A stretch of DNA of 64,000 nt from Candidatus Poribacteria bacterium (GCA_965214095.1 OZ243938.1:1600001-1664000); one strand, 5' to 3'. Positions 1 to 20,685 are shown, counted from the first letter of the stretch. The notes: generated from the sequence alone by a model not told the origin. Program-made: numbers and translations.

Positions 1-2
1 CT

Positions 3-560: not shown

Positions 561-713
561 TTTATGTGCGTCATGTTGATCTAAACAACTGTAGCAATCG
601 CTGAGGAGATTATTATGTATCATAAACAAACCTATAATACGAATCAAATGAAATCTGATAATGCAGATGTAACTACCTGGAAACTCCCCGATGGTGCAAT
701 TGCACGATTAGGA
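477..713 (+). repeat. Conserved WD40-array junction repeat, copy 1 (last blade + spacer + RBS + N-terminal leader)
   Basis: ttttcaccggatggcaaatatctcgcaag...tagtttat(at)gtgygtcatgttga...gaggagattattatg...caaacctataatacgaatcaaatraaatctgataat recurs at 6917-7156 and 9161-9388. Confidence 0.9.
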
Positions 714-2600: not shown

Positions 2601-2699
2601 ATATTTCTCGTAAATTCTCTTGGTCAATTTCATATAATACCTTGACGCACGAGGTTATTGAATACTGAACGTCTATTAGTAATAAAAGGAGACATCTTC

Positions 2700-4763
2700 T
2701 TGGAAAAGAGAATACATACAACCCCCTCATTTAGACCTATTGACGACACAGATGTAACAACTTGGAAACTACCTGAAGGTGCAATCGGCAGATTGGCACG
2801 TGGACGGGTGTCAGATATGTCCTTTTCAGTTGATGGTAAATATCTTGCTGTCGCAACCCCTATCGGTTGTTGGTTGTATGATCGATCATCCCTGAAACCA
2901 CTCGACTTGTTCGAAACAGAATGCGGTATGCTTGATTCCATTGTCTTTTCACACGACACCCAATTCATTGCTACAAGTAATAAAGATGGTGTTCTAAAGA
3001 TATGGGATACACAAACGCTAAAGTGCCTCGCAAAGATAAACCATCGCAAGAATGTAGATGCAACTTCAGGATATTTTTGGAACCTCCATTTTTCTCGGGA
3101 CAACGCATACTTAGCAGCATCTTGTTTTGACAAACAAAATGTTGTCTACGCGTGGCACAAAAACACTGATGAACCTGCGATTTACTTCCCAATTGACTTA
3201 GAAAAAGAAAGTGGACACGACTTTCCTATCTGTTTCTCTCCGATAGGGAATCTACTTGCATACGTGTCTGCTGGAACCCCGCAGAACACTCTCACCATTT
3301 CCGATATAGAGACTAATGAACACATCACACATCTCAACTGTATAGCACCATTGGTATACCGAGGTCTTGTCTTTTCTCCTTGTGGACAATATATAGCTGC
3401 TATCAATCTGAACAATGAGATGTTGGTGTGGAATGTTCACAACGGCACTTTGGAAACGGAACCCACTACTTATAATGGGAGGAGGTTAATCCCTGCCTAT
3501 ACACCCGATGGCACACTACGCGTTGCCGATATTTACGACTATAAAGTTGTAATATGGGATGCTATCCGAAAAGAAATAATGGATACCTTTAAATGTCAGA
3601 ACCGCTGGCATGATCATTTTTCATCCGATGGTGCACACATCGCAACGATCCTCTCGCGCAGCGATCTCTGTGTGTGGACAGTCGGGTCACCGTCAACAAA
3701 AGTTACAAGTCCTGCTGATCATAAACCTGTTCCATATTCGGTTGTTTTTTTTAAAAAAGGTAAAACATTAACAAGTCCAGAAATGTTTGGTGCACAGCTC
3801 GTTTGTTGGAATGTTGCACAGAGGCAAACAGAACAGATTTTCCCAACGCTGAGGATGCAGGCACAGTACACGACTCAAACTAAAAATCTCACAACGGAAG
3901 AAAGACAGGATTTGTTCCGAGTCAGCACATTGTCTCCTTGTGGAAAACGACTAGCACTTTGCAAACTTCCGAGGGGTTCAATTGAAATCTGGGACATTAC
4001 GTCTGAAACACTCATTATAAAACTCTCGGACAGTAGAGGATTTGACGCCGCAATGTGTTTTTCACCTTCTAATAAACATCTCATCGGCACAGCACCTACG
4101 GGCGGTACAGGAGACATCGGTGTATGGGATACACAGTCTGGGAAGAAAGTTAATATGCTCACAGGACATACGAATTATATTTTAACAGTAGCTTTCCATC
4201 CAAGCGGTAAACGACTCGCAACCGTCGCCAAGGATAGAACAGCAAGGCTCTGGGATATTGACAGCGGTGAACAACTCGGAGTTTTCCCCACAGAACTACC
4301 AGAAGATACCTCCCTCTATAGAGGCGATCCAGAGCAGATACACCAATATATTCAAAAATATAAAAAAAGAAGTGGCTATAAGTGCATCCCTTATAAACTC
4401 GTCTTCTCTCCTTGTGGCACAACGATCGCCTGTGGGATAAAAGATCATATCCAGTTGCGAGACACAGATACCTTAGAGACACAGATGCTCATACTGCTAC
4501 CAAAAACGTGCACCAAACCGTTTGCGCTTACATTTTCCCCCTGCGGAAAATACCTCGTCTCTGGGTCGTGGTGGATAAAGGGATTGGACAAAGTATCCAT
4601 AAGAATATGGGAAGTCGCAACGGGTCAAAATATACACACATTCTGGGGACATACAACAGATGTACAGGATTTAGCATTTTCACCGGATGGCAAATATCTC
4701 GCAAGTAGCAGTTATGATGGCACCATACTCCTCTGGGATATGAAACCTATTATATGCACCTAA
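2700..4763 (+). CDS. WD40 repeat protein (array gene W2)
   Basis: ORF 2658..4763; likely TTG start at 2700 after AAGGAG; WD blades; paralog of 9302..11386. Confidence 0.9.
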   Translation: MEKRIHTTPSFRPIDDTDVTTWKLPEGAIGRLARGRVSDMSFSVDGKYLAVATPIGCWLYDRSSLKPLDLFETECGMLDSIVFSHDTQFIATSNKDGVLKIWDTQTLKCLAKINHRKNVDATSGYFWNLHFSRDNAYLAASCFDKQNVVYAWHKNTDEPAIYFPIDLEKESGHDFPICFSPIGNLLAYVSAGTPQNTLTISDIETNEHITHLNCIAPLVYRGLVFSPCGQYIAAINLNNEMLVWNVHNGTLETEPTTYNGRRLIPAYTPDGTLRVADIYDYKVVIWDAIRKEIMDTFKCQNRWHDHFSSDGAHIATILSRSDLCVWTVGSPSTKVTSPADHKPVPYSVVFFKKGKTLTSPEMFGAQLVCWNVAQRQTEQIFPTLRMQAQYTTQTKNLTTEERQDLFRVSTLSPCGKRLALCKLPRGSIEIWDITSETLIIKLSDSRGFDAAMCFSPSNKHLIGTAPTGGTGDIGVWDTQSGKKVNMLTGHTNYILTVAFHPSGKRLATVAKDRTARLWDIDSGEQLGVFPTELPEDTSLYRGDPEQIHQYIQKYKKRSGYKCIPYKLVFSPCGTTIACGIKDHIQLRDTDTLETQMLILLPKTCTKPFALTFSPCGKYLVSGSWWIKGLDKVSIRIWEVATGQNIHTFWGHTTDVQDLAFSPDGKYLASSSYDGTILLWDMKPIICT

Positions 4764-4795
4764 AACAACTGATAAAAAATAACTTGGAGGTTTCC

Positions 4796-7000
4796 ATGGA
4801 TAATCAACGATCACAAACACCCACACAAATACCCCAAACAAACGCAGATATTACCACTTGGTCTCTCCCTGAGGGTGCAATTGCACGTTTAGGGCGCGGT
4901 CGTAACCGTGGTGGTCTAACATTTTCACCTGATGGTGATTCTCTTGTTGTTGCGACAGACATCGGGTGTTGGTTGTATGACCTTGATACGCTGACGCCGA
5001 GTGCGTTATGGGCAACAGAACGGGGGATGGTTTCTGCCATCTCCTTTTCTCATAATGGGAAGTGGATTGCTACCACCAACTGGGACGGCATCGTGAAGAT
5101 ATGGGACACACAAACCTTACGCTGCATTTCCCAAATAGAACCACCTTGGCATCCTAATACATATGTAGATTTTTCATCAGATGGGCAGCACTTAGCTCTG
5201 GTTGGTAGTACACAAACTTCTGCATGGACAGCTGTTTACGACTGGCACTTGAACACAACTACGCCTATCATAAACTTAGATTTTACGCTGAAACCACAGG
5301 TATACTCTGCAGTCTCAACAGCTTTTTCCATTAATGGTAATTTATTTGCGTATACGTCCGACTACAATATGACATCTGTGATGCACATGGAGACAGGGGA
5401 GATCATAGCGAAATTTACTGACACATATACCGATGACACATATACCAAAGGTCCTATTTTAGGGACCACCAACTTAGTTTTTTCACCTTGTGGAGAGTTC
5501 CTTGCGGGTTGTAATAAAAAGGACACGGTTCATGTATGGAATATCCAAAGCGGGAACTTTACGATGGAACCGACAACTTATCATCAGAGCACTCGGGTAC
5601 TGCCGACCTACCTATCTGATGGCACATTACGGGTTGCTGCGCGTCATCCAAAAGAAATAATCATCTGGGATACGAAGTCGCAGGAGAAGGTGGACTCCAT
5701 TGCATATTCGGGAGGGATCTTCTGGGCAACGTGCTTTTCAGTTGATGGTAGAAAGTTCGCAATCGCCAGTAGATACGATGATCTTAAGCTCTGGTGTGAA
5801 GGTTGTTCCTCAAAAGTCGTATCTCTGACTGAACATCTACATCCGGACCCTGTCCAAAGGTTCCCGAGCACACTGGATTTTTCTAAGGACAGTCGGACAC
5901 TTTTCTGTGGATACTGGAAACACATCGGACACCTTGCTTGGGATGTTTCGAAGCACCAAATAGCACGGACATTTCCGTCACATTCACATGAATATTCGGC
6001 ACATCCCGATATGCCTTTCACGATGTCACACAATGCGGAACTGATAGCTACTGCAAACGGCATGGACAGCCCCATTAAAGTTTGGGATATAGCGTCAAAT
6101 ACGCAAGTTGCAGAGTTCCTCGAATCTTCATGGCAAGTGTGCTGGCTGACTTTTTCTTCAACAGCAGAATATCTTCTGAGTAGCATGAATAGAGACGCAG
6201 CCAAGGTTTGGGATGTAGAATCTGGCACGCAAGTCGCAGAACTTACTGAGAAGGATAACTTAATGGAGAAAGGGTTCAAGATGAAAATGTTTTCTCCGAC
6301 AGATGAATATATACTCGGTATCAGTAAGGATCGTATCAGCGTGTGGGATGCCTTGAAGTGGGAACATCTTTATGAAACTCACCTCAAGGGTTTTAACAGG
6401 TCAAGGAGAGAGGGAGTATTTAAGTTTGGGACACCGTTGAGGTTTCATCCAGACGGTCAGCATTTCATCACTGCTGGATACGAAAAGGATGCTTTTGTCT
6501 GGGACCTCAAATGCGGTGAACAAGTGGGTTCACTTCACACAGAAAAATGTTTAGATACAACCCTCTATAGAGGTGAGCCACAAGATATCCAGCGTCTCCG
6601 CGAACAACAGAATGCGGACTCTCGACGTATCCGTGGAATTGAAACATCCCCCTGCGGCACTTTTATTGCTGGCGCAATGCATAACGAAATTAGGGTATGG
6701 GACGCTGCTACCTTACAAACCCAAATAGCAATCATACCATCCATTGGCTGTCAGAAGTCTTATATAATAGTGTTTTCACCTTGCAGCAAGTATCTGGCAA
6801 CAGGTGCGTGGTGGCAAGAGGGACAAACAAAAATGTCTATCAGGTTGTGGAATATCATTACAGGTGATAATATTGCCACTTTTTGGGCACACACGACTGA
6901 TGTTGATAAACTTGCGTTTTCACCGGATGGCAAATATCTCGCAAGCGGTAGTTATGATGGTACTATCCTCGTCTGGGATATGAAACCATTTATAAATTAG
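4796..7000 (+). CDS. WD40 repeat protein (array gene W3)
   Basis: ORF 4754..7000; ATG 4796 after GGAGG; WD blades; close paralog of 7058..9244. Confidence 0.9.
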   Translation: MDNQRSQTPTQIPQTNADITTWSLPEGAIARLGRGRNRGGLTFSPDGDSLVVATDIGCWLYDLDTLTPSALWATERGMVSAISFSHNGKWIATTNWDGIVKIWDTQTLRCISQIEPPWHPNTYVDFSSDGQHLALVGSTQTSAWTAVYDWHLNTTTPIINLDFTLKPQVYSAVSTAFSINGNLFAYTSDYNMTSVMHMETGEIIAKFTDTYTDDTYTKGPILGTTNLVFSPCGEFLAGCNKKDTVHVWNIQSGNFTMEPTTYHQSTRVLPTYLSDGTLRVAARHPKEIIIWDTKSQEKVDSIAYSGGIFWATCFSVDGRKFAIASRYDDLKLWCEGCSSKVVSLTEHLHPDPVQRFPSTLDFSKDSRTLFCGYWKHIGHLAWDVSKHQIARTFPSHSHEYSAHPDMPFTMSHNAELIATANGMDSPIKVWDIASNTQVAEFLESSWQVCWLTFSSTAEYLLSSMNRDAAKVWDVESGTQVAELTEKDNLMEKGFKMKMFSPTDEYILGISKDRISVWDALKWEHLYETHLKGFNRSRREGVFKFGTPLRFHPDGQHFITAGYEKDAFVWDLKCGEQVGSLHTEKCLDTTLYRGEPQDIQRLREQQNADSRRIRGIETSPCGTFIAGAMHNEIRVWDAATLQTQIAIIPSIGCQKSYIIVFSPCSKYLATGAWWQEGQTKMSIRLWNIITGDNIATFWAHTTDVDKLAFSPDGKYLASGSYDGTILVWDMKPFIN

Positions 7001-7156
7001 TTTATATGTGCGTCATGTTGATACAAACAAGCAGTAGCAATTGTTGAGGAGATTATTATGCAACATAAACAAACCTATAATACGAATCAAATAAAATCTG
7101 ATAATACAGATGTAACAACTTGGCACCTTCCCGATGGAGCAATTGCACGGTTAGGA
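6917..7156 (+). repeat. Conserved WD40-array junction repeat, copy 2
   Basis: Aligns by eye with 477-713 and 9161-9388, including the non-coding spacer. Confidence 0.9.
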
Positions 7157-9244
7157 CGAGGTCGTATCCGTGGGGGTCTAACATTTTCACCTGATGGTAA
7201 TTCTCTTGTTGTTGCGACAGACATCGGGTGTTGGTTGTATGACCTTGAAACATTAACACCACGGGCATTGTGGAATACAGAACGAGGGATGGTTTCTGCC
7301 ATCTCCTTTTCTCATAATGGGAAGTGGATTGCTATCGGAAATATGCACGGCACCGTGAAGGTATGTGACACACAAACCTTACAATCCATTGCAATAATAG
7401 AAACGAACCGACTTGTTACACGTATTAATATTTCTCCGAGTGGACAGCACTTGGCAATTGCTACAGTAGCTGGTGGCGTTCAAACTACTATTTATGCTTG
7501 TCGTCCTCATATCAGTACACCGATTGCAAACTTTGCTTTAACGCAAGAACAACGGGTAAAATGTACAACATCAATAGCATTTTCGCCTAATGGCTGCCTA
7601 TTTGCTTACACGTCTGACATCAATAAAACATCTGTGATATATGTAGAGACAGGAGAAATCATCGCGGAACTTCACGATACGTATACCACGTATACCGAAG
7701 AACCTGGTGGATGTACGAAATTGGTTTTTTCACCGTGTGGTAAGTTCCTTGCGGGGTGTAATAAGAAGGACACGGTTCATGTCTGGGATATCCAAAGCGG
7801 TAACTTCGCAATAGAACCGACAACCTATCATCAGAGCACTCGCGTGCTGCCGACTTATCTATCTGATGGTACCCTAAAGGTTGCAGCGTGTTATCGCAAA
7901 GAGGTAATATTCTGGGATACAAAGTTACAACAGAAGATGGATGCTTTTGAATATATAGGGAGCGAAGGTGGGGCAACGTGCTTTTCAGTTGATGGTAGAA
8001 AGTTCGCAATTGCCAGTAAATACGACGATCTTAAGGTCTGGTGTGAAGGTTCTCCCTCAAAAGTCGTATCTTTACCTGAACATCTACATCCCGACCCTGT
8101 GCAAAGGTTCCCGAATATACTGGATTTTTCTAAAGACAGTCGGACGCTTTTCTGTGGATATTGGAAACACACCGGGTACCTCGCTTGGGATGTTTCGAAG
8201 CACCAAATAGCACGGACATTTCCGTCACATTCACGCGGATATTCGGCACATCCCGAAATGCCTTTCACGATGTCACACAATGCGGAACTGATAGCTACAG
8301 CAAACGGAACGGACAGTCCCATTAGTGTTTGGAATGTAGTCTCAAACACGCAAGTGGCAGAGTTCCTCAAATCTTCACGGCAAGTGTGCTGGCTAACGTT
8401 ATCTCCAAAAGGAGAATATCTTGTGGGTAGCATGAAGGGAGACGCAGCCAAGGTATGGGATGTAGAATCTGGCACGCAAATCACAGAACTTACAGAGAAG
8501 GATACTTCGTTGACGAAAGGAGTCAGAATGAAGATGTTTTCCCCGACAGGTGAATATATACTCGGTATCGGTAAGGATCGTATCAGCGTGTGGGATGCCT
8601 TGAAGTGGGAACATCTTTATGAAACTCGCCTCAAAGAGTTTAACCGGTCCAGGAGAGACGGAGTGTTTAAGCTTGGGACACCGTTGAGGTTTCATCCAGA
8701 CGGTCAGCATTTCTTCACTGCTGGATACGAAGTGGGTGCTTATGTGTGGGAACTCAAAAACGGTGAACAAGTGGGGACACTACCCACAGAAATATGCATA
8801 GATACAACCCTATATAGAGGAGATCCACAGAACATCCAGCTGGTCCGTAAACAGCAGGAAACGACCCGTCGCGTCCGACAACTTGAGGTATCTCTTTGCG
8901 GTACTATTATTGCTGGCGCAATGCAAAACGAAATTAGGGTATGGGATGCAGCCACACTACAAACAAAAATGGTGATAATACCTCCGAAAGGATGTCAAAA
9001 ACCTTTCACCTTAGCCTTTTCACCGTGTAGTCAATATCTTGCTGCTGGCGTATGGTGGCAACACGGACAAATAAGAATGTCTATCCGGGTATGGAATATC
9101 ACTACTGGTGAAAATATTACTACCTTCTGGGCACATCCTACCGATATCGATAGACTTAGGTTTTCACCGGATGGCAAATATCTCGCAAGTGGCAGTTATG
9201 ATGGCACCATCCTGCTCTGGGATATGAAACCATTTATAAATTAG
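7058..9244 (+). CDS. WD40 repeat protein (array gene W4)
   Basis: 728 aa; WD blades; RBS GAGGAG; long shared blocks with W3. Confidence 0.9.
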   Translation: MQHKQTYNTNQIKSDNTDVTTWHLPDGAIARLGRGRIRGGLTFSPDGNSLVVATDIGCWLYDLETLTPRALWNTERGMVSAISFSHNGKWIAIGNMHGTVKVCDTQTLQSIAIIETNRLVTRINISPSGQHLAIATVAGGVQTTIYACRPHISTPIANFALTQEQRVKCTTSIAFSPNGCLFAYTSDINKTSVIYVETGEIIAELHDTYTTYTEEPGGCTKLVFSPCGKFLAGCNKKDTVHVWDIQSGNFAIEPTTYHQSTRVLPTYLSDGTLKVAACYRKEVIFWDTKLQQKMDAFEYIGSEGGATCFSVDGRKFAIASKYDDLKVWCEGSPSKVVSLPEHLHPDPVQRFPNILDFSKDSRTLFCGYWKHTGYLAWDVSKHQIARTFPSHSRGYSAHPEMPFTMSHNAELIATANGTDSPISVWNVVSNTQVAEFLKSSRQVCWLTLSPKGEYLVGSMKGDAAKVWDVESGTQITELTEKDTSLTKGVRMKMFSPTGEYILGIGKDRISVWDALKWEHLYETRLKEFNRSRRDGVFKLGTPLRFHPDGQHFFTAGYEVGAYVWELKNGEQVGTLPTEICIDTTLYRGDPQNIQLVRKQQETTRRVRQLEVSLCGTIIAGAMQNEIRVWDAATLQTKMVIIPPKGCQKPFTLAFSPCSQYLAAGVWWQHGQIRMSIRVWNITTGENITTFWAHPTDIDRLRFSPDGKYLASGSYDGTILLWDMKPFIN

Positions 9245-9388
9245 TTTATATGTGTGTCATGTTGAGCTAAACAAACTGCAGCAATTGCTGAGGAGATTAT
9301 TATGCATCATATTCAAACCTATAATACGAATCAAATGAAATCTGATAATACAGATGTAACAACATGGGAACTACCTGAAGGTGCAATC
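9161..9388 (+). repeat. Conserved WD40-array junction repeat, copy 3
   Basis: Aligns by eye with 477-713 and 6917-7156. Confidence 0.9.
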
Positions 9389-11386
9389 GACAGATTAGCA
9401 AGGGGACGGGTGTCGGATATGTCATTTTCAACTGATGGTAAGTATCTTGCCGTCGCAACGCCGATCGGTTGTTGGTTGTATGATAGATTGTCGCTGAAAA
9501 CGATCGCGTTATTTGATACAGAAAGTGGAATGCTTAATACCATTGCCTTTTCACCCGACACCCAGTTCATTGCTACCAGTAATAAAGATGGTGTTTTAAA
9601 GGTATGGGATACACAAACGCTAAAGTGTCTTGCAAAGATAAACCATCGCAAGAATGTAGATGCAGCTTCAGGATATTTTTCGAAGCTCTGCTTTTCTCAA
9701 GATAACCAATACTTAGCCGCATCCTGTTTTGATAAACAAAATGTTGTCTACGCATGGCAACAAAACACTGATAAACCTATGATCTGTTTACCGATTGATG
9801 TAGAAGAAACGAAGGGACACAGCTTTCCCATCTGTTTCTCACCTAATGGGTATCTACTCGCGTATGTGTCTTCTGTATCTCTCCAGAACACTGTAACGAT
9901 TTCCGATATTGAAACCGGTGAACACATCACACATCTTAGCCAATCCTCGGCACTGTCTACATACCGTTTTTCCCCTTGCGGACAATATATAGCAGCTGCT
10001 AATCGGAACAATGAAGTGTTGGTATGGAATGTTCACAACGGCACTTTGGAAACGGAACCAACAGCGTATGATGGAAAGTGGTTAAGCATTGCCTATACAC
10101 CTTATGGCATACTACGCGTTGCCGATATTTACGACTATAAAGTTGTGATTTGGGATGCTATCTCAAAAGAAAAAATAGATACCTTTGAACGCGATAAACC
10201 CAGGTCTGATCATTTTTTAAGCGGACATCATTTACACTTTTCATCCGGTGGCGCACACATCGCAACGATCCTCTCGCGCAGTAAGCTCTGTGTGTGGACG
10301 GTCGGGGCACCATCAAGTAAAGTTTCAAGTCCTGCTGATCATAAACCTGTTGTCCACGCGGTTGCTTTTTCTAAAGACGGAAAGACATTAGCAAGTAGAT
10401 ATGCGTGGGGTATGTATCACGTATTCTGGGATGCTACACAGCGACAAACAGAACAAATATTCCCAACGCCAAATATCCAAGCACAACGCACAGCTCTAAC
10501 TAAAGACCTAACAGAAGAAGAGAAAAAGCAGTGGTACCGTGTCAGTGCCTTGTCACCTTGTAGGGAACGACTGGCACTTCGCGACCTTCCGAGAGGGTCA
10601 GTTGAAATTTGGGATATTGCGTCTGAAACCCTTATTACAGAACTCTCGGACAGTAAGAAATTTAGATCTTGGCGTGAAATGCGTTTTTCACCGACAGGTG
10701 AACGTTTTATCGATACAGCACCGACAGGTGATATTGATGTCTGGGATACACAGTCTGGTGAGAAAGTCAATACACTCGCAGGAGATAACCGACTGATTTT
10801 GACAACTGCGTTTCACCCTGATGGTAAACAACTCGCTGCTGCACCAAAAGGGAGTGCTGGAATGCTTTGGGATATTGACAGCGGTGAACAACTCGGAGTG
10901 TTCCCTACAGAACTGCCAGAAGATACCTCCCTCTATAGAGGCGATCCAGAGCAGATACACCAATATATTCAAAAATATAAAAAAATAATCAAGCAATATA
11001 AGTGTATCCCTTACAAACTCGCCTTCTCTCCTTGTGGCACGATGATCGCCTGTGGGATACAAGATCATATCCGGTTGCGAAATACAGCAACCTTAGAAAC
11101 GCACATGCTTATACTACCACCCGAAACGTGTAGCAGACCGTTTGCACTCACATTTTCCCCCTGCGGAAAATACCTCGTCTCTGGGTCGTGGTGGATAAAG
11201 GGGTTGGACAAAGTATCCATAAGAATATGGGAAGTCGCAACGGGTCAAAATATACACACATTCTGGGGACATACAACAGATGTGCAGGATTTAGCATTTT
11301 CACCGGATGGCAAATATCTCGCAAGTAGCAGTTATGATGGCACCATACTCCTCTGGGATATGAAACCTTTTACCGGTTCAGATTGA
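9302..11386 (+). CDS. WD40 repeat protein (array gene W5)
   Basis: 694 aa; WD blades; paralog of W2 and W0. Confidence 0.9.
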   Translation: MHHIQTYNTNQMKSDNTDVTTWELPEGAIDRLARGRVSDMSFSTDGKYLAVATPIGCWLYDRLSLKTIALFDTESGMLNTIAFSPDTQFIATSNKDGVLKVWDTQTLKCLAKINHRKNVDAASGYFSKLCFSQDNQYLAASCFDKQNVVYAWQQNTDKPMICLPIDVEETKGHSFPICFSPNGYLLAYVSSVSLQNTVTISDIETGEHITHLSQSSALSTYRFSPCGQYIAAANRNNEVLVWNVHNGTLETEPTAYDGKWLSIAYTPYGILRVADIYDYKVVIWDAISKEKIDTFERDKPRSDHFLSGHHLHFSSGGAHIATILSRSKLCVWTVGAPSSKVSSPADHKPVVHAVAFSKDGKTLASRYAWGMYHVFWDATQRQTEQIFPTPNIQAQRTALTKDLTEEEKKQWYRVSALSPCRERLALRDLPRGSVEIWDIASETLITELSDSKKFRSWREMRFSPTGERFIDTAPTGDIDVWDTQSGEKVNTLAGDNRLILTTAFHPDGKQLAAAPKGSAGMLWDIDSGEQLGVFPTELPEDTSLYRGDPEQIHQYIQKYKKIIKQYKCIPYKLAFSPCGTMIACGIQDHIRLRNTATLETHMLILPPETCSRPFALTFSPCGKYLVSGSWWIKGLDKVSIRIWEVATGQNIHTFWGHTTDVQDLAFSPDGKYLASSSYDGTILLWDMKPFTGSD

Positions 11387-11459
11387 GGCACTTCCAATAA
11401 GAATGTGCCAATTGCTTGAAACTGAGATGAATTTCCGCTAAACTTTAGCAGGGAGGATT

Positions 11460-12737
11460 ATGATCATGTCAAACATTTCAGATGAACAATTGGTAGTCGC
11501 CGCGGCAAAAGGTGATACCAATGCAATGGAAAACATAAAAGAAAGAGCAATATTTGGAAAATACGGCATACGCAAATGTCTTAAGAAGATGGGATGTACT
11601 GATAAAGAAATATCTCTGCTGGAACCCAAAATAGTCCAGATTTTGTTGGCTTCCATACCCAAATATGAATTCACTGCTCCGTTTTTTGTATACGGATACC
11701 GTCTTGCGGTAAATTATTCTCTCCAATATAAGGAAAACAGGGAAGTTCTACTGTTTGACAAACGGATACATAAGGAAAAAGCATGCCCAAATACACTGCG
11801 GACATTGAGCGACACTCTTGGAAAACCTAAGCATCCGCCGCTTGAACAAATTGACCTTGAGATTCGGACACTTGTGAGTTTACTGAATCAATCACCTGAC
11901 ATTAAAACATCCGGTTCCTCTTGTAGTGGACATCCAGATCAGGAAGAATGGAAAAACGGGAAATGGTCTCAATTTGGAGGATATATTGGGATCATACCAA
12001 TGAGTTCCCCGGACAAGGCATTGGATTTTCTCAACGGTATACTGAAGAAGTTAGATAATTCTAACACACAGACCAAGAATAGATTTTTACCAGCAGACCT
12101 ACAGCAAACAAAGAGTACACTGAATGAAAACATCACTTTCACTGACGCAATTCGCGCACGATACAAGCAAGTAGACGCTGAGGATTTGTTCTGCTCAGAT
12201 GCCCCCGTTGTCTTGATAAACGTTTCATTCCGTTTTTATGTGTGCCATAGCCATGCAAAGCATTCTTTAGAAATCTGGAAACAACTCATCGCGCGTATAA
12301 AAGAGTTGATCCCAGAAGACAGGGAGCTTACTGCTGAAGTTGACACGCCAGAGAAGGCAATGCAGCTATTGCAAAAAGCATTACACCGGTTACCCTTCCT
12401 ATTTAGTGCCACACTTACGACAAGTCAGGAAGGATATCCCGGAATAGTCTTGACTACTGTAGCAGACCTCGCTTTATTACAGTGGTTTTCAACATTAGCC
12501 GATAGGCTGCATGAATGTCTTGATAATGCAGGATATGTAAGTTCTCGCTATACAGAAGATGAAATACCATATGCTGAAAAGTGGTCTTTCACGTTGAGAC
12601 CATTTCTAAACCAAGAATGCATACCGTTACCGCATCTGTTAGCACCGCAGTGGGAACCACGCACTCGTGAAGACCATCTGAAGATTTGGAAACTCCTTGA
12701 GTTAACAGTGGCAGAACAAGTTGAATGTGAAATTTAG
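11460..12737 (+). CDS. Hypothetical protein: degenerate ECF sigma region-2-like N-terminus + TYW3-like (SCSGH) domain
   Basis: SDEQLVVAAAKGDTNAME...F.VYGYRLAVNYSLQY resembles ECF sigma regions 1.2/2; IDLEIRTLVSLLNQSPDIKTSGSSCSGH resembles the TYW3 N-terminal motif; start may be ATG 11466. Confidence 0.75.
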   Translation: MIMSNISDEQLVVAAAKGDTNAMENIKERAIFGKYGIRKCLKKMGCTDKEISLLEPKIVQILLASIPKYEFTAPFFVYGYRLAVNYSLQYKENREVLLFDKRIHKEKACPNTLRTLSDTLGKPKHPPLEQIDLEIRTLVSLLNQSPDIKTSGSSCSGHPDQEEWKNGKWSQFGGYIGIIPMSSPDKALDFLNGILKKLDNSNTQTKNRFLPADLQQTKSTLNENITFTDAIRARYKQVDAEDLFCSDAPVVLINVSFRFYVCHSHAKHSLEIWKQLIARIKELIPEDRELTAEVDTPEKAMQLLQKALHRLPFLFSATLTTSQEGYPGIVLTTVADLALLQWFSTLADRLHECLDNAGYVSSRYTEDEIPYAEKWSFTLRPFLNQECIPLPHLLAPQWEPRTREDHLKIWKLLELTVAEQVECEI

Positions 12738-12861
12738 AGCATTTACCAGTAATCTATATTAAAATGTAATAAGTAAACACCTCGCTATAGAAAATGAAGA
12801 CTAAAAACATTTTGGGGTGATCCACTCAACAATCGTCAAATTGACATTTAGGAGGATTTTT

Positions 12862-14139
12862 ATGTTGTCAAACATTTCAGAGCAAAGATTGATAGTTGCA
12901 GCGGTGAAAGAAGGTGATTCCAATGCATTGGAAGAACTAAAAGAACGTCTAATTTCTGGACAATACGGTATACGCCCTATAATTAATAGAATTCCATGTG
13001 CAGATGCCGACAGAAAAATACTTGAACAACATATTGTGGAGAATATCATCAATGATTTGCATGCACATGGGTTCAGAGGGTCTATCCAGACATCTGGATT
13101 CCGTCTCGCTACCCATTTTGCTATCCAATATAGGAATAATAACGACTTTAGACTTTCTGACCTAGACAGTCCGAAAGAGAAAGTAGTGCTGACTGCAAAC
13201 AATGATCCTGAAGAACCTAAGCACCCTCCACTGGAGGAAATTGACCTTGAGATTCGGACACTTGTGAGTTTACTGAATCAATCACCTGATATTAAAACAT
13301 CCGGTTCTTGTAGTGGACATCCACAATGGCAACCCGATAAATGGACTCAGTATGGAGGCTATCTTGGGATCAGACCTATCAGTTCTCCGCGTAAAACTTT
13401 AGATTTTCTTGTTGGTATGCTGATGCAGTTAGATAATACAGGCACGCCAACCAATAATGCATACTTGCCAGCTGCGCTGCAAGTAGAGGATAGCACACGG
13501 AATGATAACACCATTTCTGTCGAAGCAATTCGTGAGCGATATAAGCAAGCTGACGCGGAGAATTTATACTGTTCCGGTGCGCCTATTGTCCTTATAGGTG
13601 TTTATTTTCGTTTCTATGTTTGTCATCGTGAAGAAAGCCACTCTTTAGAAATCTGGAAACAACTCATCGCACGTATAAAAGAGTTGATCCCAGAAGACGG
13701 AGAGCTTACTGCCGAAGTTGACACGCCAGAGATGGCAATGCAGCTATTACAAAAAGCATTACACCGGTTACCCTTCCTATTTAGTGCCACACTTACGACA
13801 AGTCAGGAAGGATATCCCGGTATTATCTTGCACACAGTAGCAGACCTTTCATTATTCCAATGGTTTTGTGCATTAACCGACAAACTACATGAGCAGCTTG
13901 GCAAAGCAGGATATGTAAGTTCTCGCGATACAGAAGATGAAATACCATATGCTGAAAAGTGGTCTTTCACGTTGAGACCATTTCTAAATCAAGAATGCAT
14001 ACCGTTACCGCATCTGTTAGCGCCGCAGTGGGAACCACGCACTCGTGAAGACCATCTGAAGATTTGGAAACTCCTTGAGTTGGCAGTTGCAGAACAACTT
14101 AAGTCTGAGGGTATTACATTAAAAACTGAAAATACGTAG
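12862..14139 (+). CDS. Paralog of 11460..12737 (sigma-2-like + SCSGH domain)
   Basis: ATG 12862 after AGGAGG; SEQRLIVAAVKEGDSNALEEL...GFRLATHFAIQY; KTSGSCSGH; C-terminal third nearly identical to the upstream paralog. Confidence 0.75.
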   Translation: MLSNISEQRLIVAAVKEGDSNALEELKERLISGQYGIRPIINRIPCADADRKILEQHIVENIINDLHAHGFRGSIQTSGFRLATHFAIQYRNNNDFRLSDLDSPKEKVVLTANNDPEEPKHPPLEEIDLEIRTLVSLLNQSPDIKTSGSCSGHPQWQPDKWTQYGGYLGIRPISSPRKTLDFLVGMLMQLDNTGTPTNNAYLPAALQVEDSTRNDNTISVEAIRERYKQADAENLYCSGAPIVLIGVYFRFYVCHREESHSLEIWKQLIARIKELIPEDGELTAEVDTPEMAMQLLQKALHRLPFLFSATLTTSQEGYPGIILHTVADLSLFQWFCALTDKLHEQLGKAGYVSSRDTEDEIPYAEKWSFTLRPFLNQECIPLPHLLAPQWEPRTREDHLKIWKLLELAVAEQLKSEGITLKTENT

Positions 14140-14157
14140 TGTATCTCATAAATCATT

Positions 14158-14229
14158 ATAGGACGAGGTTTTGTGCTTCATCCTATCCTGGGAAAAAGAC
14201 AATGGACGGGCACAGAGACTCGCCTCTAC
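14158..14229. repeat. Inverted pair of GTAG-type REP-like palindromes (REPIN-like)
   Basis: ataggacgaggttttgtgcttcatcc ... ggacgggcacagagactcgcctctac; similar to gtagggcaaggtctctgtgccttggcc at 37688. Confidence 0.55.
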
Positions 14230-14285
14230 GATTTAAGGTAATGTGGTATTATTTCATTTCAAACTGTTTTTATGGTGTGTTTAAT

Positions 14286-16169
14286 ATGCAAAACAAAGAT
14301 TTCACACAGAACTATCCTGAAGAAAACCTTATCTCTTTACCATCCGAGGCGATCGCTCGATTCGGTAGGGGTGATGTAGAAGGTACTGCCATCTCCCCCG
14401 ATGGAAATATGATTGCAGTAGCATCCCGTATTGGTTTGTGGATTTATAATGCTCATACTGAAGATTTCATAAGGCTAATTGCGGTAGAAGGCACAGGTCT
14501 ACTTTCAAGGGTTACTTTTTCTCCAGATAGCACACAGGTTGCTACAGGCGATTGGGATGGCATTGCATCACTATGGGATGTTTCTACTGGAGCAAAACTC
14601 GCAACCTTCAAGAATAAAGATTATGTCATTTCCATTGCTTTTTCTCCAGATGGAAAATCCTTGGCAACTGGAACACGGGATGGTAAAGCAACACTGTGGG
14701 ATATTAACACTGGTAATGAACGTTGGTCGATTTCTCACAAAGATTATGTCACTTCCGTTGCTTTTTCTCCAGACGGTTTACTTTTAGCAACAGGTAGTCG
14801 GGATAGTACATCAAATCTATGTGATGTTGAGAATGGAGAAGTTCAACGGTGTTTCACCCATCAGAAACATAGTGTAGATATTGAATTAGATACCGGGTTC
14901 GTTGAGACCTTTAACAATCTCGGAATCAATTGCATTGCCTTTTCTCCAAATGGACGATATTTTGCCACAGGTGACCGTATCGGAGCTGATATAAAGGGTG
15001 TTACAACATTGTGGGATATTGAAAGCGGGGAGGCTGTGTGGGAATTTGCCCATGAGGACTCTGCGACATCAATTGCTTTTTCAACAGACAATAAATACAT
15101 GGCAACTCGCTTTTCCAATGGAGACACCGATGTTCGTCATATTGCCGATTGCACAACGGCATCAATTCAAGAAGGAAATTGGGCAAAACAGAAAAAGAAA
15201 CCGCCAGCAAGTCATCCACGAGGATTATACGGCTGGCTCGTTAACTTTTCACCAGACGGAAAGCACTTGGCTGCCGTAACACAAATGTCTTCCCTTAAGA
15301 TATGGGATTTAGCATCTGGGATAAACATCAAGACAATTGACCAAGATATTGGACAAGCAGAAGCACTATCTTATGCACACGATGGATATTGCTTTGGAGT
15401 GAGCCGATCATCCAAAGGTGAGACCTCTTGGAATTGTGCGACCTTTTGGAAAGATCAGGAACAAAATATTGACTTTCGGCCTGAAGATCCAAATGCAGAC
15501 ATTTTATCCGCCGCTGTTTCACCTGATACCGAAATTGTGGCTACAGGAGGAGATGATAAAAAAGTTTATTTATGGGATAGAGCAACACAAAAATTGGTTA
15601 ACACACTTTCTGGACATACTGGACCAATAATTAACCTTGCATTCTCCCCTAATGGCACACACTTAGTAAGCACAGGAGGCATTGAAGTGGAAAGACAAGA
15701 AAAAGATGGAACCGTGTATTCTTACCCACTGGAGGATGGTGCGGCAGATCAGACAGCAAGAGTTTGGCATATTGAAACAGGTACTGAGGTCGCAACGCTC
15801 ACGCATCGCTTCAAAGTTGAGACGCTTGTTTTCTCACCAGATAGTACTTGCCTTGCAACTGCCTCTGGGGAAGATGTCCATCTGTGGGATACTAAGACGT
15901 GGCTGAAAATTGTAACACTTGAGACAGTAAGAGTTGAGTCGCTCGGATTTTCGGCGGATGGTTCGCTACTTGCCGTTGGTGGTACAGGACGGAAGCCAAA
16001 GATACAGATATGGAATGTGAAAACAGCACAACTGATTGTAGAATTCTCTGGTCACAAGAGTGATGTGGAATCTGTTGCCTTCTCACCAGATGGCACACTA
16101 TTGGCAAGCGGAGGTTTTGATAGTGTCATCTACTTATGGGATATGAAATCTATTACAGAATTAGATTGA
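14286..16169 (+). CDS. WD40 repeat protein (array gene W6, divergent)
   Basis: ORF 14139..16169; probable ATG 14286; LPSEAIARFGRG leader; canonical FSPDG..WD repeats. Confidence 0.9.
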   Translation: MQNKDFTQNYPEENLISLPSEAIARFGRGDVEGTAISPDGNMIAVASRIGLWIYNAHTEDFIRLIAVEGTGLLSRVTFSPDSTQVATGDWDGIASLWDVSTGAKLATFKNKDYVISIAFSPDGKSLATGTRDGKATLWDINTGNERWSISHKDYVTSVAFSPDGLLLATGSRDSTSNLCDVENGEVQRCFTHQKHSVDIELDTGFVETFNNLGINCIAFSPNGRYFATGDRIGADIKGVTTLWDIESGEAVWEFAHEDSATSIAFSTDNKYMATRFSNGDTDVRHIADCTTASIQEGNWAKQKKKPPASHPRGLYGWLVNFSPDGKHLAAVTQMSSLKIWDLASGINIKTIDQDIGQAEALSYAHDGYCFGVSRSSKGETSWNCATFWKDQEQNIDFRPEDPNADILSAAVSPDTEIVATGGDDKKVYLWDRATQKLVNTLSGHTGPIINLAFSPNGTHLVSTGGIEVERQEKDGTVYSYPLEDGAADQTARVWHIETGTEVATLTHRFKVETLVFSPDSTCLATASGEDVHLWDTKTWLKIVTLETVRVESLGFSADGSLLAVGGTGRKPKIQIWNVKTAQLIVEFSGHKSDVESVAFSPDGTLLASGGFDSVIYLWDMKSITELD

Positions 16170-16407
16170 AGACACCTCCAATCAGAATGCAATAGGGGGT
16201 AATGTCAATAATTTCAGATGAAGGGCATTAGTTAACAATCTCACTGCTTTAACTGTGAGTCAATGAAATTCAGAGGCATTCAATTGTCAATATTCTCTAT
16301 CGTGGGAGGGGTTTCAAACCCCGATTTAACAACAAAATCAGTCGTCCTCACGCAATTCACATTGCTTTCTATTGCTATAAATGAGGTATTATGATAAATT
16401 GAAGTAA

Positions 16408-16541
16408 TCCCATTTCTAAAAAATGAAAATTCATTGTGAAATTATCGGTTCAAGCAGAGTTGAAGAATGTCCGAGGCGCAATGAATTGAACGACTACAAA
16501 CGCGTTTTTTGTGAATGACAAGCGATCAATTAGGAATGGGA
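16408..16541. repeat. Putative ~135 bp MITE with internal GTAG-REP core
   Basis: tcccatttctaa (16408) / ttaggaatggga (16530-16541) inverted ends; core gaatgtccgaggcgcaatgaattgaacgactac also at 28080. Confidence 0.45.
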
Positions 16542-16883
16542 AAATAGAAGATTTTGACATACTCACCGAGTTAAAACTCCGGTGATTCTTTTGAAAGAAT
16601 CACACAAGCAATTGTGGTATCAACGACCTTGTTTAGAAAACCTAATAGGCATTCCAGTGACAAAGCCTACTCCAACAGTTGATGTCCCAACTGCACCTCC
16701 AAAGGAGGTCTTAAGAAACATTTTCACGTGTGAATATCAACGGGATGAGTTTTGAAACTTCTTTCCCTAACACGCAACAGATGTTTTGAAAACTTTAGCA
16801 GTATTGAATAGCAAAGCTTTTACGTGATTGTTTCACTGCTTAGCTATCTGCCGTAGCATCAATCACAACCAATGCCGATTGCT
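16535..16883 (-). ncRNA. Candidate stand-alone omegaRNA-like transcript (boundaries approximate)
   Basis: Downstream of TTGCCT-17-TATAAT; hairpins acctcctttggaggt, gcagttgggacatcaactgt, taggc..gccta resemble tnpB 3' omegaRNA scaffolds; ends at TCAA plus flank. Confidence 0.5.
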
Positions 16884-16995
16884 AAAGATATTATATTAGT
16901 TTTTAGATTAAAAGGCAAGTTTTTTCTTGACACACAATAGGAGTGGTGTCTACATCCCCGTGCTAAAGCAACGGGGTCTTGACACCGAAGATATG
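16554..16995 (-). mobile_element. Non-autonomous IS200/IS605-family element (no tnpA/tnpB) with omegaRNA-like right end
   Basis: Minus strand: TTAT target, left-end hairpin ggtgtc..accccgttgctttagcacgggga..gacacc, right end GAATCACCGGAGTTTTAACTCGGTGAGTATGTCAA; ends match the IS609-like TTAT/TCAA pattern. Confidence 0.75.
16890..16918 (-). promoter_or_regulatory. Sigma70 promoter inside the IS605-like element
   Basis: Minus strand TTGCCT-N17-TATAAT. Confidence 0.6.
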
Positions 16996-17018
16996 ATAAA
17001 GTTTGAAGGAGATAAATA

Positions 17019-18062
17019 TTGATGTTAAATTGGGGTGTGATTGGACCTGGTGGTATTGCACGCGTATTCTGCAATGGTATGCGATTTACGGATACTGGAC
17101 AGATTTTTGCAGTTGCGAGCCGTACTAAATCACGTGCAGAGAGTTTTGCAGATATTTTTGATATACCACGTCGTTATGGGAGTTATGAAGCACTGTTAGC
17201 TGATGGAGATATTGATGCAGTTTATGTTGCGACTATTCACCCACATCACGCGGAGTGGGTAATTAAAGCCGCTGAGGCAAAGAAGCATATTTTGGTTGAG
17301 AAACCAATTAGTATTGATCATGCGACCGCTTCAACGATGGTGGACGCTGCCCGTAAGAATGATGTGTTCTTGATGGAAGCGTTTATGTATCGTTGCCATC
17401 CGCAGATACAACGCATGGCTGAGTTGATTCAGGACGATGCAATCGGTGAGGTGCGTTTCGTTCAAGCGACATTTGGGTTTCAAGCAGGTTTCAATCCAGA
17501 AGGTCGCCTTTTCAATCGTGAAATGGGTGGTGGTGGAATTCTTGATATTGGATGTTATACTGCCTCAATAGCTCGTAAAGTTGCTGGTGCGGCTGTGGGT
17601 AAACTGTTCTTAGATCCGATTTCAGTAAAGGCGCATGGGAAGATTGGACCGACGGGTGTTGATCACATTGCAGCGGCGACACTGAAATTTGAGAATGAAA
17701 TTATTGCTGAGATCGTCTGTGCTGTTGAATGTAACATCGGTAGTAAAGTTATTATCTACGGTTCTGGTGGGACAATTACGATTCCAAGTCCTTGGCTGCC
17801 ATCTTCACCGTGTCGTGGTGCGAGCGGTGCAATGCCTTTAGATACAACCTTCCCACCAAGTATACTTGTTTTGAACTCCTATCAAGATAGAGAAACAACG
17901 GAGATATCCGTTGAAGTAGACCGTGACCTATTTACCTATGAAGCAGATATGGTAGCAAACCATATTTCTGATCGACAAGCACCTGCGATGTCTTGGGATG
18001 ACACATTAGGAAATATGAAGGTGTTAGATGCTTGGCGTGCAGAGATAGGCGTTGTTTATTGA
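17019..18062 (+). CDS. Gfo/Idh/MocA family oxidoreductase
   Basis: WGVIGPGGIA, VEKP, GGGGILDIGCY motifs. Confidence 0.9.
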   Translation: MMLNWGVIGPGGIARVFCNGMRFTDTGQIFAVASRTKSRAESFADIFDIPRRYGSYEALLADGDIDAVYVATIHPHHAEWVIKAAEAKKHILVEKPISIDHATASTMVDAARKNDVFLMEAFMYRCHPQIQRMAELIQDDAIGEVRFVQATFGFQAGFNPEGRLFNREMGGGGILDIGCYTASIARKVAGAAVGKLFLDPISVKAHGKIGPTGVDHIAAATLKFENEIIAEIVCAVECNIGSKVIIYGSGGTITIPSPWLPSSPCRGASGAMPLDTTFPPSILVLNSYQDRETTEISVEVDRDLFTYEADMVANHISDRQAPAMSWDDTLGNMKVLDAWRAEIGVVY

Positions 18063-18990: not shown

Positions 18991-20685
18991 TTACGGATCA
19001 GGGATTAATGGTTTTATATTGTTCTTTCCCGCTTCATATAGGTAAGCATCTCTGCCATTAAAATATGTCTTATAGACACTTTGCCAATCGCTGTTTGTTA
19101 ACCCCCATCTGGGAGCAGGACCAAGTTTAAAATAGATAATATTCGCTTCGTCAAGACTTTCAAATGGATAGTCCCCTACTGGTGCATCGCGTGTGTTGGG
19201 GACAAAAATGACAGCGTCGTGAACATCAAATTTCTTTACCAACGGTGGCAATTTCTGATAAACTGCACTCCAATTCTGATACACTTTCCCAATCCACACA
19301 TAACTCCATACAGTATTTACGCTGAGCAACAACAGACAAATTCCTGCTGCATAGGTAAGTTTATTAACCCATATCGGTTTTTTGAGTTGCTGATAGAGAA
19401 GATACATACCACGTGCTGTTAATGGAATGAATCCGAGGAAAATTGCTTCTGTGTAGTACCTGGCATTTACAGGTGTAAATCCCCATGTCGATCCTTCGAA
19501 ATAAAAGAATGCATAGAGTATCAAACTTCCCACAATAAAAGCCATACATAACACATCATATCTGTTTCGTGAGGAATGGAAAAATGGTATGAGTGCGAGG
19601 CACCATGGTATTAACAAGGGTAGAAAATGAAGGAAAAACTTGGGAGTTAGCTTCGGTTCAATTAGGAGTCTTGGTTTATAGTTGCCCCATCCAAGTGCGT
19701 TAAAACTGATGCACGGGAGAATGTGTTGCCATGTTCTTGTGACTGACCATTGCGGTTTGAATTCCCATCCACTATCAGGGTCAACATAATACCCTTCACC
19801 GCGTTTTCCAAAACCCACTTTATCTTTAGGTTGTGCGGCGGTGTGGGTGAAAGTGAACGGGTTTCCCGTAAAATGATTATTCCACGCCATACATACAAGT
19901 ATCATGAACGTAAAGGGTATTAAGAAAATCCCTAACCGAGTCATCAGTTGTTTCTGTGTAGGATTGTTTGTCTGACTCTGCTCATCTGTTTCGGTGGAAT
20001 CGTGCACAACTGTTGGTTTATAGAGGTGATAGAGTGCGAATCCTGCTCCGACAACACCGAAAACTATGGCGGAGAGTGGACGTGTATTGAAAGCATACCC
20101 TAAAGCGACTCCAGAGAGAATCGGATAAATTACATGTCGTTTCCCATTAAGGATTCGGACAAGCGTGAATAGAAAGAGAGTAAGGTAAAATCTGCTTACC
20201 GGTTCGCTGAACCATGTTGATCCCATTCCTGCCGTTGCGGGAGAGATCAGTGCAATAACCGCTGCTATAAGTGCAATAGGTTTACCATAAGTGTCTTTGA
20301 TTAAAAGGAACAGTAGAAATATTGCACCACCAGTTGCAAGTGCAGGGATAAGCCATGGCGCGTTGAAGAATACACCAAACATTAGCATGAGTGCATTTCC
20401 AAATGGATATTTGGAATACCATTTACCATTGAGCATGTTGATGTGTGGTGAAGGAGAGAGTCCATATTCCGGCATCGGTTTGCCGTTTGGGTCTTGGACA
20501 GGTGTTCCATCGGATGTTTGGATAGGCGTTGGTATAGATATTTTGCCTTGTGCGAACAACTTCGCTTGGAATAGATATGAAGCGGTATCGGGTTCAAAAT
20601 AAGAGAAGTTGAGGTATATACCGCTTAGGATAATGGAAAGTATGACACCGAGTATGGAGATTATGAGGATTGGTTTGTTTTTCAT
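18991..20685 (-). CDS. Polytopic membrane glycosyltransferase (GT-C, ArnT/PMT-like)
   Basis: 564 aa; many TM segments; DTASYLFQAK, SKYPFG, FNTRP, ARY motifs. Confidence 0.7.
   Translation of the reverse strand: MKNKPILIISILGVILSIILSGIYLNFSYFEPDTASYLFQAKLFAQGKISIPTPIQTSDGTPVQDPNGKPMPEYGLSPSPHINMLNGKWYSKYPFGNALMLMFGVFFNAPWLIPALATGGAIFLLFLLIKDTYGKPIALIAAVIALISPATAGMGSTWFSEPVSRFYLTLFLFTLVRILNGKRHVIYPILSGVALGYAFNTRPLSAIVFGVVGAGFALYHLYKPTVVHDSTETDEQSQTNNPTQKQLMTRLGIFLIPFTFMILVCMAWNNHFTGNPFTFTHTAAQPKDKVGFGKRGEGYYVDPDSGWEFKPQWSVTRTWQHILPCISFNALGWGNYKPRLLIEPKLTPKFFLHFLPLLIPWCLALIPFFHSSRNRYDVLCMAFIVGSLILYAFFYFEGSTWGFTPVNARYYTEAIFLGFIPLTARGMYLLYQQLKKPIWVNKLTYAAGICLLLLSVNTVWSYVWIGKVYQNWSAVYQKLPPLVKKFDVHDAVIFVPNTRDAPVGDYPFESLDEANIIYFKLGPAPRWGLTNSDWQSVYKTYFNGRDAYLYEAGKNNIKPLIPDP

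Follow-up and report, generated by a model that had tools for sequence, protein, structure and literature searches.

A tandem gene pair of Candidatus Poribacteria joining a putative ECF sigma region 2 derivative to a TYW3-like module

Domains that stem from sigma factors but have lost sigma activity are, to our knowledge, rare; PhyR is the textbook case and revealed sigma mimicry as a regulatory principle. The TYW3 superfamily has, as far as we know, been linked so far to wybutosine synthesis in archaea and eukaryotes only. In PhyR of Alphaproteobacteria, a degenerate domain derived from an extracytoplasmic function (ECF) sigma factor is joined to a non-sigma input domain, a receiver, and the protein has an anti-sigma partner, NepR (PMC4814048 and PMC4551977). 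ECF57 sigma factors carry C-terminal WD40 extensions (PMC8999054). TYW3 is a tRNA-yW N-4 methyltransferase dependent on S-adenosylmethionine (SAM). Its defining features are an N-terminal Asp, an (S/T)xSSCxGR motif and a His that closes strand 3; function depends on Asp, Cys and Arg, SAM binding on Asp and His, and the Taw3 fold consists of an N-terminal extension, a RAGNYA part and an SHS2 part (Currie et al. 2017, PMC5311493). Here we describe two adjacent genes in a 64,000-nucleotide stretch of the genome of a sponge symbiont, a Candidatus Poribacteria bacterium (GCA_965214095.1, OZ243938.1:1600001-1664000; this whole stretch is called the window below). Each gene encodes a protein in which a domain resembling ECF sigma region 2 (sigma2L) is followed by a linker and a TYW3/Taw3-like alpha/beta module (TYW3L). 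The layout appears to be new, and it joins known kinds of protein parts, namely sigma-derived regulatory domains and the TYW3 superfamily.

The domain sigma2L has the helical fold of ECF (group 4) sigma factors and sequence homology with them (PF04542; E. coli sigmaE, M. tuberculosis SigK, B. subtilis SigW). A full-length AlphaFold (AF2) model of copy 1, built on a 34-sequence alignment, reached pLDDT 82.9 and pTM 0.84. Residues 1-95 of this model superpose on ECF sigma region 2 with Z 10.7-10.1 and rmsd 1.8-3.0 A over 84-90 residues (VIA-align). The best matches are SigK (Z 10.7, rmsd 1.8 A, 84 residues), SigW (10.6), CnrH (10.4) and sigmaE (10.4), with SigC also among them, and ranks 1-26 of the structure search with the full model are sigma factors or transcription complexes. 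Profile searches point the same way. The family profile matches sigmaE region 2 at E=0.0025 and seven more ECF sigma entries at E<0.1 among Protein Data Bank (PDB) sequences; among 1.84 billion representatives it matches 516 proteins at E<=1e-3, including ordinary ECF sigmas of ~190 aa that align to positions 1-100 with E around 1e-7; and a sigma2L hidden Markov model matches ECF sigmas of its own genome at E=2.5e-9. The Pfam model Sigma70_r2 matches 6 of the 34 family members at E<=1 (best 2.3e-4) and neither of the window copies at that level, so that both fall below its gathering cut-off. The original prediction, made from the DNA alone, had read both N-termini as a degenerate sigma-2 domain from stretches such as SDEQLV.AA..GD and YRLAVN..L.Y. 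Both open reading frames (ORFs) are real and lie in tandem on the + strand, both stretches fall within residues 1-95, and the search for a profile or structural match, on which that prediction had staked its sigma-2 reading, came out in its favour.

The family differs from ECF sigma factors in several respects. Neither Sigma70_r4 nor r4_2 matches any of the 34 members at E<=1, and past residue 95 the model shows the linker and then the alpha/beta module, a non-sigma part, and not a region 4. The acidic sigma-2.2 motif (DAED-type) is replaced by a family consensus L-E-x-x-I-V-E in the alignment with sigmaE, whereas the 'class A' ECF sigmas encoded near family genes retain DAEEI at this place. 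In sigma factors this motif makes contact with beta', and ECF43 sigmas, which are without it, become active only on phosphorylation (PMC8999054). Of sigma region 2, the family retains the N-terminal L..A..GD..A...L helix together with the F..W...N region. Because region 4 is missing and the core-binding sigma-2.2 motif is replaced, both as originally predicted, sigma2L cannot be a self-sufficient sigma factor. In a maximum-likelihood tree of 101 region-2 domains, the 37 sigma2L domains (34 N-terminal and 3 C-terminal, the latter described below) form a clade parted from all 64 genuine sigma-2 domains by a branch of length 1.51 with support 100/100. From its sequence, sigma2L thus appears to be an old and distinct derivative of ECF sigma region 2. 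A recent copy of the neighbouring sigma's region 2 was also considered as its source and is ruled out by the separate long branch.

The second module carries the signature that first suggested a TYW3 relationship. The predicted string ID.EIR.LV.LLNQ.PDIKT.(S)SCSGH is present at residues 131-158, and I131, D132, E134, T150, S154, C155, S156, G157, H158 and P159 are invariant in the 34 aligned members; copy 2 has Gly in place of the first Ser of the SS pair. Pfam TYW3 matches this motif in 34/34 members (best E=2.3e-6), always below the curated cut-off of 27 bits. It is the only Pfam family matched in the window copies, which reach 17.1 and 19.2 bits over profile positions 14-48 of 211. The family profile also finds the TYW3-like AF_2059 among PDB sequences (E=0.15). 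When residues 120-425 were modelled alone (pLDDT 87.0, pTM 0.87), Taw3-family structures took ranks 1, 2, 3 and 5 among 48,161 chains: 2qg3 (Z 7.0 over 117 residues), 2drv (6.6, 116), 1tlj (6.2, 111) and 2dvk (5.0, 114), with five chains in all at Z>=5. The match is credible because the sequence motif and the structural ranking agree, and the predicted resemblance to TYW3 is borne out to this extent. Inside the module, a subdomain of ~130 residues (252-380) has weak ferredoxin-like matches at Z about 4-4.9.

Several features set TYW3L apart from TYW3/Taw3 (PF02676; 1tlj, 2qg3, 2drv, 2dvk), with which the family shares the N-terminal Asp and (S/T)xSSCxG. All 34 members have His (H158) and then Pro where the signature has Arg, giving SCSGHP; the ferredoxin-like subdomain is an insert; and the C-terminal helix carries the family-specific RTREDHLKIW. 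The Asp, Thr, Ser, Cys and Gly of the TYW3 signature are invariant in distant relatives also, and R401, H406 and W410 of the C-terminal helix are kept in most of them, while, of the 14 relatives with a residue at the Arg position, 12 have His and 2 have Tyr. The strand-3 His of SsTaw3 is His73 (PMC5311493), and the family alignment has no invariant His 20-25 residues past the motif, where its equivalent was sought. The module is acidic, with a median pI of 5.45 and a net charge of about -9, whereas Taw3 has a large basic patch proposed as its tRNA-binding face (PMC5311493). The host is a bacterium in whose genome (94.5% complete) TYW1 (Wyosine_form, PF08608) had no match, the control search being positive in 3 archaea. 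Taken together, sequence and model indicate that TYW3L is a module of the TYW3 superfamily and not a TYW3 enzyme. It belongs to a wider bacterial 'SCxGH' clade of this superfamily: aligned with small SCxGH proteins by hhalign, the family motif gives a probability of 98.9% and E=3.9e-17 over 40 columns.

Small (~150 aa) or internally duplicated proteins from metagenomes (P0149, P0152, P0156, P0161, P0162, P0143 and P0179) carry a 40-residue element of the form EID-EIR-LV-LLN-PGI-T-SSCxGH. A relationship to MTHFR_C, the SAM-binding regulatory domain of eukaryotic MTHFR, was considered and dropped, the leads being weak and their scores in the chance range. The leads were 8qa4_A residues 420-644 (Z 4.7, rank 8) and language-model neighbour clusters (0.83); Pfam gave no MTHFR_C sequence match in the family, and literature linking TYW3 with MTHFR was not found.

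The strongest functional lead is domain shuffling, which links sigma2L time and again to a single ECF sigma class. In 3/3 genomes examined, a class A ECF sigma factor that is itself complete is extended at its C-terminus by sigma2L (domain E=4e-18). By size and match, such frames occur in 7 of 151 genomes, six of which are without a full-length family gene, and in the tree the C-terminal copies nest inside the family's own sigma2L clade. The domain sigma2L also stands alone, in intact genes of 108-130 aa that have no remnant of TYW3L in their vicinity. One of these solo genes, at L042, is syntenic with the full-length gene at L007 and lies just upstream of tRNA, 23S and 5S rRNA genes. The second module is found alone or behind two Clp_N repeats (4/31 distant relatives scanned), and it is also fused ahead of an FGE-sulfatase domain. 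In P0114 the order is reversed, TYW3L being followed by a sigma-2-type domain (E=8e-12) in a protein that may be cut at a contig end. Because both solo forms and several fusions occur, sigma2L and TYW3L appear to be independent units whose joining has happened repeatedly.

Each gene for a sigma factor extended by sigma2L adjoins a gene for a sigma-WD40 fusion whose N-terminus is of 'class B' (MERDD..). At L011 and L012, fusions of this class contain a membrane helix. A metagenome scan for the Clp_N-fused relatives returned two short contigs with uninformative neighbours. In a single case, which is no proof of linkage, an ORF of radical-SAM appearance (CxxxCxxC-type start; L034:20-1087) lies ~500 bases upstream of a Clp_N-TYW3L gene on a short metagenome contig.

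Table 1. Features of the gene pair, its flanks and related genes (window positions unless a locus is named)
Feature	Coordinates	Strand	Basis
Copy 1, 425 aa: sigma2L + linker + TYW3L	11460..12737	+	ORF; 94% identical orthologue P0001
Copy 1 residues 1-95, ECF sigma region-2-like helical domain (sigma2L)	11460..11744	+	structure and profile matches
Copy 1 residues 96-122, linker	11745..11825	+	low model confidence, poor conservation
Copy 1 residues 123-425, TYW3/Taw3-like alpha/beta module (TYW3L)	11826..12734	+	domain model, Taw3 structures
Copy 1 residues 131-159, ID.EIR.LV.LLN..P.I.T..SCSGHP	11850..11936	+	invariant columns; Pfam TYW3 profile 14-48
Copy 1 residues 252-380, ferredoxin-like subdomain inside TYW3L	12213..12599	+	weak fold matches
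Copy 1 residues 400-421, C-terminal helix with RTREDHLKIW	12657..12722	+	top conservation in wider superfamily
Copy 2 ribosome-binding site AGGAGG	12850..12855	+	sequence reading
Copy 2, 425 aa	12862..14139	+	ATG 12862; ORF call listed 12817-14139 (GTG 12817, 440 aa)
Copy 2 TYW3 motif match	13216-13317	+	Pfam TYW3
Near-identical DNA block, 92-97%	11848-11936 vs 13238-13322	+	sliding-window identity
Near-identical DNA block, 93-98%	12267..12446 vs 13645-13824	+	sliding-window identity of aligned gene pair
Near-identical DNA block, 95-98%	12537-12716 vs 13915-14094	+	sliding-window identity
WD40 double-propeller gene, last of upstream array, adjoins copy 1	9302..11386	+	Pfam WD40 families
WD40 gene of another subtype, directly 3' of copy 2	14139..16169	+	Pfam WD40, 226 bits
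Class A ECF sigma (regions 2, 4) + sigma2L, 310-318 aa	L036:7039-7968, L037:6645-7577, L038:5973-6926	-, +, +	
Solo sigma2L genes	L041:5925-6248, L042:5972-6340, L043:5853-6242	-, +, -	

With 109 full-length homologues at E<=1e-3 and the TYW3 motif matched in 34/34 members, the architecture is beyond chance. The family is found only in Candidatus Poribacteria: the homologues whose source is named are all hypothetical proteins of this group, and 23 of 24 genome loci are titled Poribacteria. Among 151 sampled Poribacteria genomes, 35 match at E<=1e-10, all from one family and two of 22 genera (g1 20/37, g2 14/57), and the eight remaining Poribacteria families, sampled with 51 genomes, gave no match. 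A full-length copy is present in 25 of the 151 genomes and two copies in 5; the window's genome has this pair as its only family genes. No characterised family matches the whole protein, in keeping with the original prediction, which knew of no described family with this layout, NCBIfam returning two chance-level rows far below its cut-offs and PADLOC nothing for either protein. A defence-system reading, which was also considered, thus has no PADLOC support. Searches of phage records with TYW3L or P0143 gave no tblastn match, and no longer fused forms of the family were found, which is weak evidence. Searches of the literature on TYW3/Taw3 and on Poribacteria WD40 proteins and sigma factors, mostly at the level of abstracts, turned up no account of such a layout.

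The genomic setting associates the family with ECF sigma factors and WD40 proteins. In the window's genome (G000) the pair closes a same-strand array that runs from an ECF sigma gene (G000:C1:1580371-1580988, 206 aa; Sigma70_r2 47.8 bits, r4_2 31.3 bits) through 14 WD40 double-propeller genes to the pair and a 15th WD40 gene. No membrane helix is predicted in the array's sigma, WD40 or family proteins. The subtype of the WD40 gene that follows copy 2 also follows the family gene in L006, L010 and L016. Context was counted over 21 loci with a full-length gene, L022-L024 being dropped as fragments. In 16 of these loci the family gene has a WD40 or sigma-WD40 gene right beside it on the same strand; 12 have an ECF sigma or a sigma-WD40 fusion no more than 6 kb away, and in 6 such a fusion is directly adjacent. 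The five adjacent fusions that lie upstream are all soluble class A proteins with the N-terminus ..LTDEELIQLVQNRNEAAF.. and no membrane helix. The family thus stands close to the ECF57 sigmas with C-terminal WD40 extensions, such fusions being its direct neighbours and sigma2L being able to replace the WD40 extension behind the same sigma class; unlike them, the family protein has neither region 4 nor WD40 repeats and is a separate gene product.

The array spans L033:371-20000 (G000:C1:1580371-1600000) and window positions 1-11386, and its short intergenic regions are also paralogous. A class A ECF sigma domain matches 53 ORFs of G000 at E<=1e-3, of which many are ~1000 aa long and lie in tandem runs near 3.23-3.29 Mb.

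Our leading interpretation, which we hold tentatively, is that these proteins are soluble cytoplasmic accessory regulators of ECF-sigma/WD40 signalling with a pseudo-sigma docking domain; the original prediction had suggested a pseudo-sigma, a decoy or a modifying effector as possible roles. Here sigma2L would be a protein-docking pseudo-sigma domain whose target is an ECF sigma of the soluble class A, or else a protein that works with this sigma. TYW3L would be a small-molecule-binding or catalytic module other than a tRNA methyltransferase, and it would gate or exploit the contact made by sigma2L. TYW3L carries a predicted polar pocket of its own, made up of the invariant residues D132, T150, S154-C155-S156-G157-H158-P159, R401 and H406. 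The linker appears disordered (pLDDT <50 at residues 112-121) and is poorly conserved (mean family identity 0.23); a pTM of 0.84 despite this linker suggests that sigma2L packs on TYW3L. As originally predicted, the N-terminal domain is the less conserved part, with a mean pairwise family identity of 0.43, whereas the TYW3-like core has 0.62-0.78. The architecture, the family and its distribution, the gene context, the domain shuffling and the fusion links are shown here; what sigma2L binds, which ligand or reaction TYW3L serves and in which direction regulation runs are parts of the proposal that we infer. The nearest analogy, in logic only, may be PhyR, which resembles the family as a soluble protein encoded near ECF sigma genes that pairs a degenerate ECF-sigma-derived domain with a non-sigma domain. 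The sigma-like domain of PhyR has a region-2-like and a region-4-like part, and the family has the region-2 part only. The partner domain of PhyR is a receiver, whereas that of the family is TYW3-like, and Pfam found no receiver domain in the family; a NepR-like gene did not turn up, no search being aimed at one.

A more novel reading is a partner switch, which we regard as unlikely. On this reading, a metabolite-sensing TYW3L would restrain the sigma-2-derived domain as a decoy, and a change of ligand would free the decoy for a class A sigma or its WD40 anchor. The switch, whose ligand could be SAM or S-adenosylhomocysteine, would couple metabolism to the large bank of sigma/WD40 modules of sponge symbionts, and in other bacteria the same sensor might be reused with a Clp_N decoy.

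Several observations weigh against regarding the proteins as accessory regulators. Structural support for TYW3L has its limits: the TYW3 matches are modest and do not exceed Z 7.0, models that lack a clear match often giving best scores of this order (7-8), and Foldseek found no match in the PDB at E<=1e-3 for either the full model or the domain model. Of the separate checks of the two domains proposed at the outset, profile and structure searches gave sigma-2 and TYW3 matches, and Foldseek gave none. Its own list, when re-scored, held weak ferredoxin-like matches alone (Z 4.7 or less), and it found no match among viral structures at E<=1e-3. On the side of sigma2L, the F..W loop aligned to the region-2 loop of sigmaE is retained. 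In sigmaE this loop binds the flipped -10 base, and nucleic-acid binding by sigma2L is thus possible. The genomic association can also be overrated. Five of the 21 loci (L007 and L017-L020) have no WD40 neighbour, WD40-like ORFs are abundant (142 in the 5.2-Mb genome G000), and the adjacency count is inflated by kinship, the 21 loci being from related genomes. Class A sigma orthologues lie ~0.7 Mb off in the window's own genome, and sigma2L shows only weak similarity (E=0.36) to the sigma that opens the local array. Finally, the strictly invariant Asp/Cys/His pocket suits an enzyme no less than it suits a sensor.

The likeliest of the rivals, though itself unlikely, is a targeted modifying enzyme in which sigma2L would bind the beta' clamp helices or -10-like single-stranded DNA, like a real sigma-2, and so deliver a SAM-dependent, TYW3-like transferase. 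Its targets would be polymerase, nascent RNA or promoter DNA, and the Clp_N-fused relatives would act at Clp substrates. The proposal draws on the SAM dependence of TYW3 and the functional role of its Asp, Cys and motif residues (PMC5311493), on the invariance of the signature Asp, Thr, Ser, Cys and Gly in the family and its distant relatives, on a sigma-2 fold preserved to an rmsd of about 2 A, and on the joining of TYW3L to docking domains of two large machines, sigma-2 and Clp_N. The Arg that TYW3 requires is, however, His in 34/34 members, and the beta'-contacting sigma-2.2 motif reads L-E-x-x-I-V-E where class A has DAEEI, a kind of loss that leaves ECF43 sigmas inactive until phosphorylated (PMC8999054).

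It is also rather unlikely that the family is a lineage-specific protein unrelated to sigma signalling, in which sigma2L would be a recycled helical scaffold and WD40 adjacency would follow from the abundance of the arrays and from shared ancestry. The 142 WD40-like ORFs, the 5 of 21 loci without WD40 neighbours and the patchy occurrence of the family in 25 of 151 genomes are what such an explanation would expect. It is hard, however, to ascribe to chance alone both that sigma2L is recurrently fused to a class A sigma with all its regions and that class A sigma-WD40 fusions are directly adjacent in 5 loci.

An RNA or tRNA methyltransferase like TYW3/Taw3, with sigma2L as an extra nucleic-acid-binding domain and incidental sigma/WD40 surroundings, is improbable. 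TYW3 is the one Pfam family matched in all 34 members and Taw3 structures are the top structural matches, and the family gene at L007 (6001-7239) lies just upstream of a tRNA gene and a 23S rRNA gene. The Pfam match is, however, below the cut-off and confined to a short part of the profile, with Arg changed to His; and a tRNA role is disfavoured because TYW3L is acidic, as against the basic patch of Taw3 (PMC5311493), and because the genome has no TYW1 match, wyosine derivatives being absent from Bacteria according to PMC4417183. At L042 the syntenic gene keeps sigma2L alone, which also speaks against this reading. Two-subunit sigma factors such as SigO-RsoA of Bacillus subtilis exist, and the retained sigma-2 fold and F..W loop region would suit a split sigma factor in which sigma2L recognises the -10 element and binds core while region 4 comes from another protein, but this is very improbable, given that no region-4-only partner adjoins the family gene in the 21 loci, that the sigma-2.2 motif is replaced, that sigma2L sits on a long branch apart from all 64 functional-looking sigma-2 domains, and that it is also appended C-terminally to a sigma that already has its own region 2.

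The pattern of fusions suggests that a derivative of sigma region 2 alone is now a mobile module, which is fused to TYW3L, appended to a complete ECF sigma or encoded by itself. It occurs in Poribacteria genomes crowded with sigma-WD40 fusions. The comparison also brings to light an uncharacterised bacterial 'SCxGH' branch of the TYW3 superfamily. The weight of these findings is limited by the confinement of the family to two genera of uncultivated bacteria and by its function being a prediction. If the proteins are accessory regulators linked to ECF sigma factors, they could offer a testable handle on the wiring of 'eukaryote-like' WD40 arsenals in sponge symbionts.

At two loci that lack WD40 neighbours, the family gene precedes a gene for an STT3-like membrane glycosyltransferase (L019:7241-9643 and L020:1886-4144), and a PMT_2-like membrane protein is encoded ~5 kb downstream of the pair in the window (18994-20685, - strand). 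A promoter and terminator scan of 11200-17100 gave no signal above shuffled controls, and no obvious motif is common to the upstream regions of family genes and those of WD40 genes.

At DNA level the two genes of the pair form a mosaic. The true start of copy 2 is the ATG at 12862, which makes it as long as copy 1, because the AGGAGG precedes this codon and the resulting N-terminus is that of all other members; an MSNISDE-type N-terminus opens all 32 non-window members in the family alignment (A1). The two proteins are identical at 278 of 425 positions (65%, BLASTP), and their genes are 74% identical overall in sliding windows over the aligned pair. Identity is lowest (42-60%) over 11577-11816, which is the body of the N-terminal domain and the linker. 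Of the near-identical blocks (Table 1), the original prediction had rightly named the first and third and overlooked the middle one. Because the block identity of 92-98% takes in synonymous sites, the blocks suggest ongoing gene conversion on top of purifying selection. Both paralog types have their own orthologues elsewhere: P0001 is 94% identical to copy 1, and P0004 has the distinctive N-terminal sequence of copy 2.

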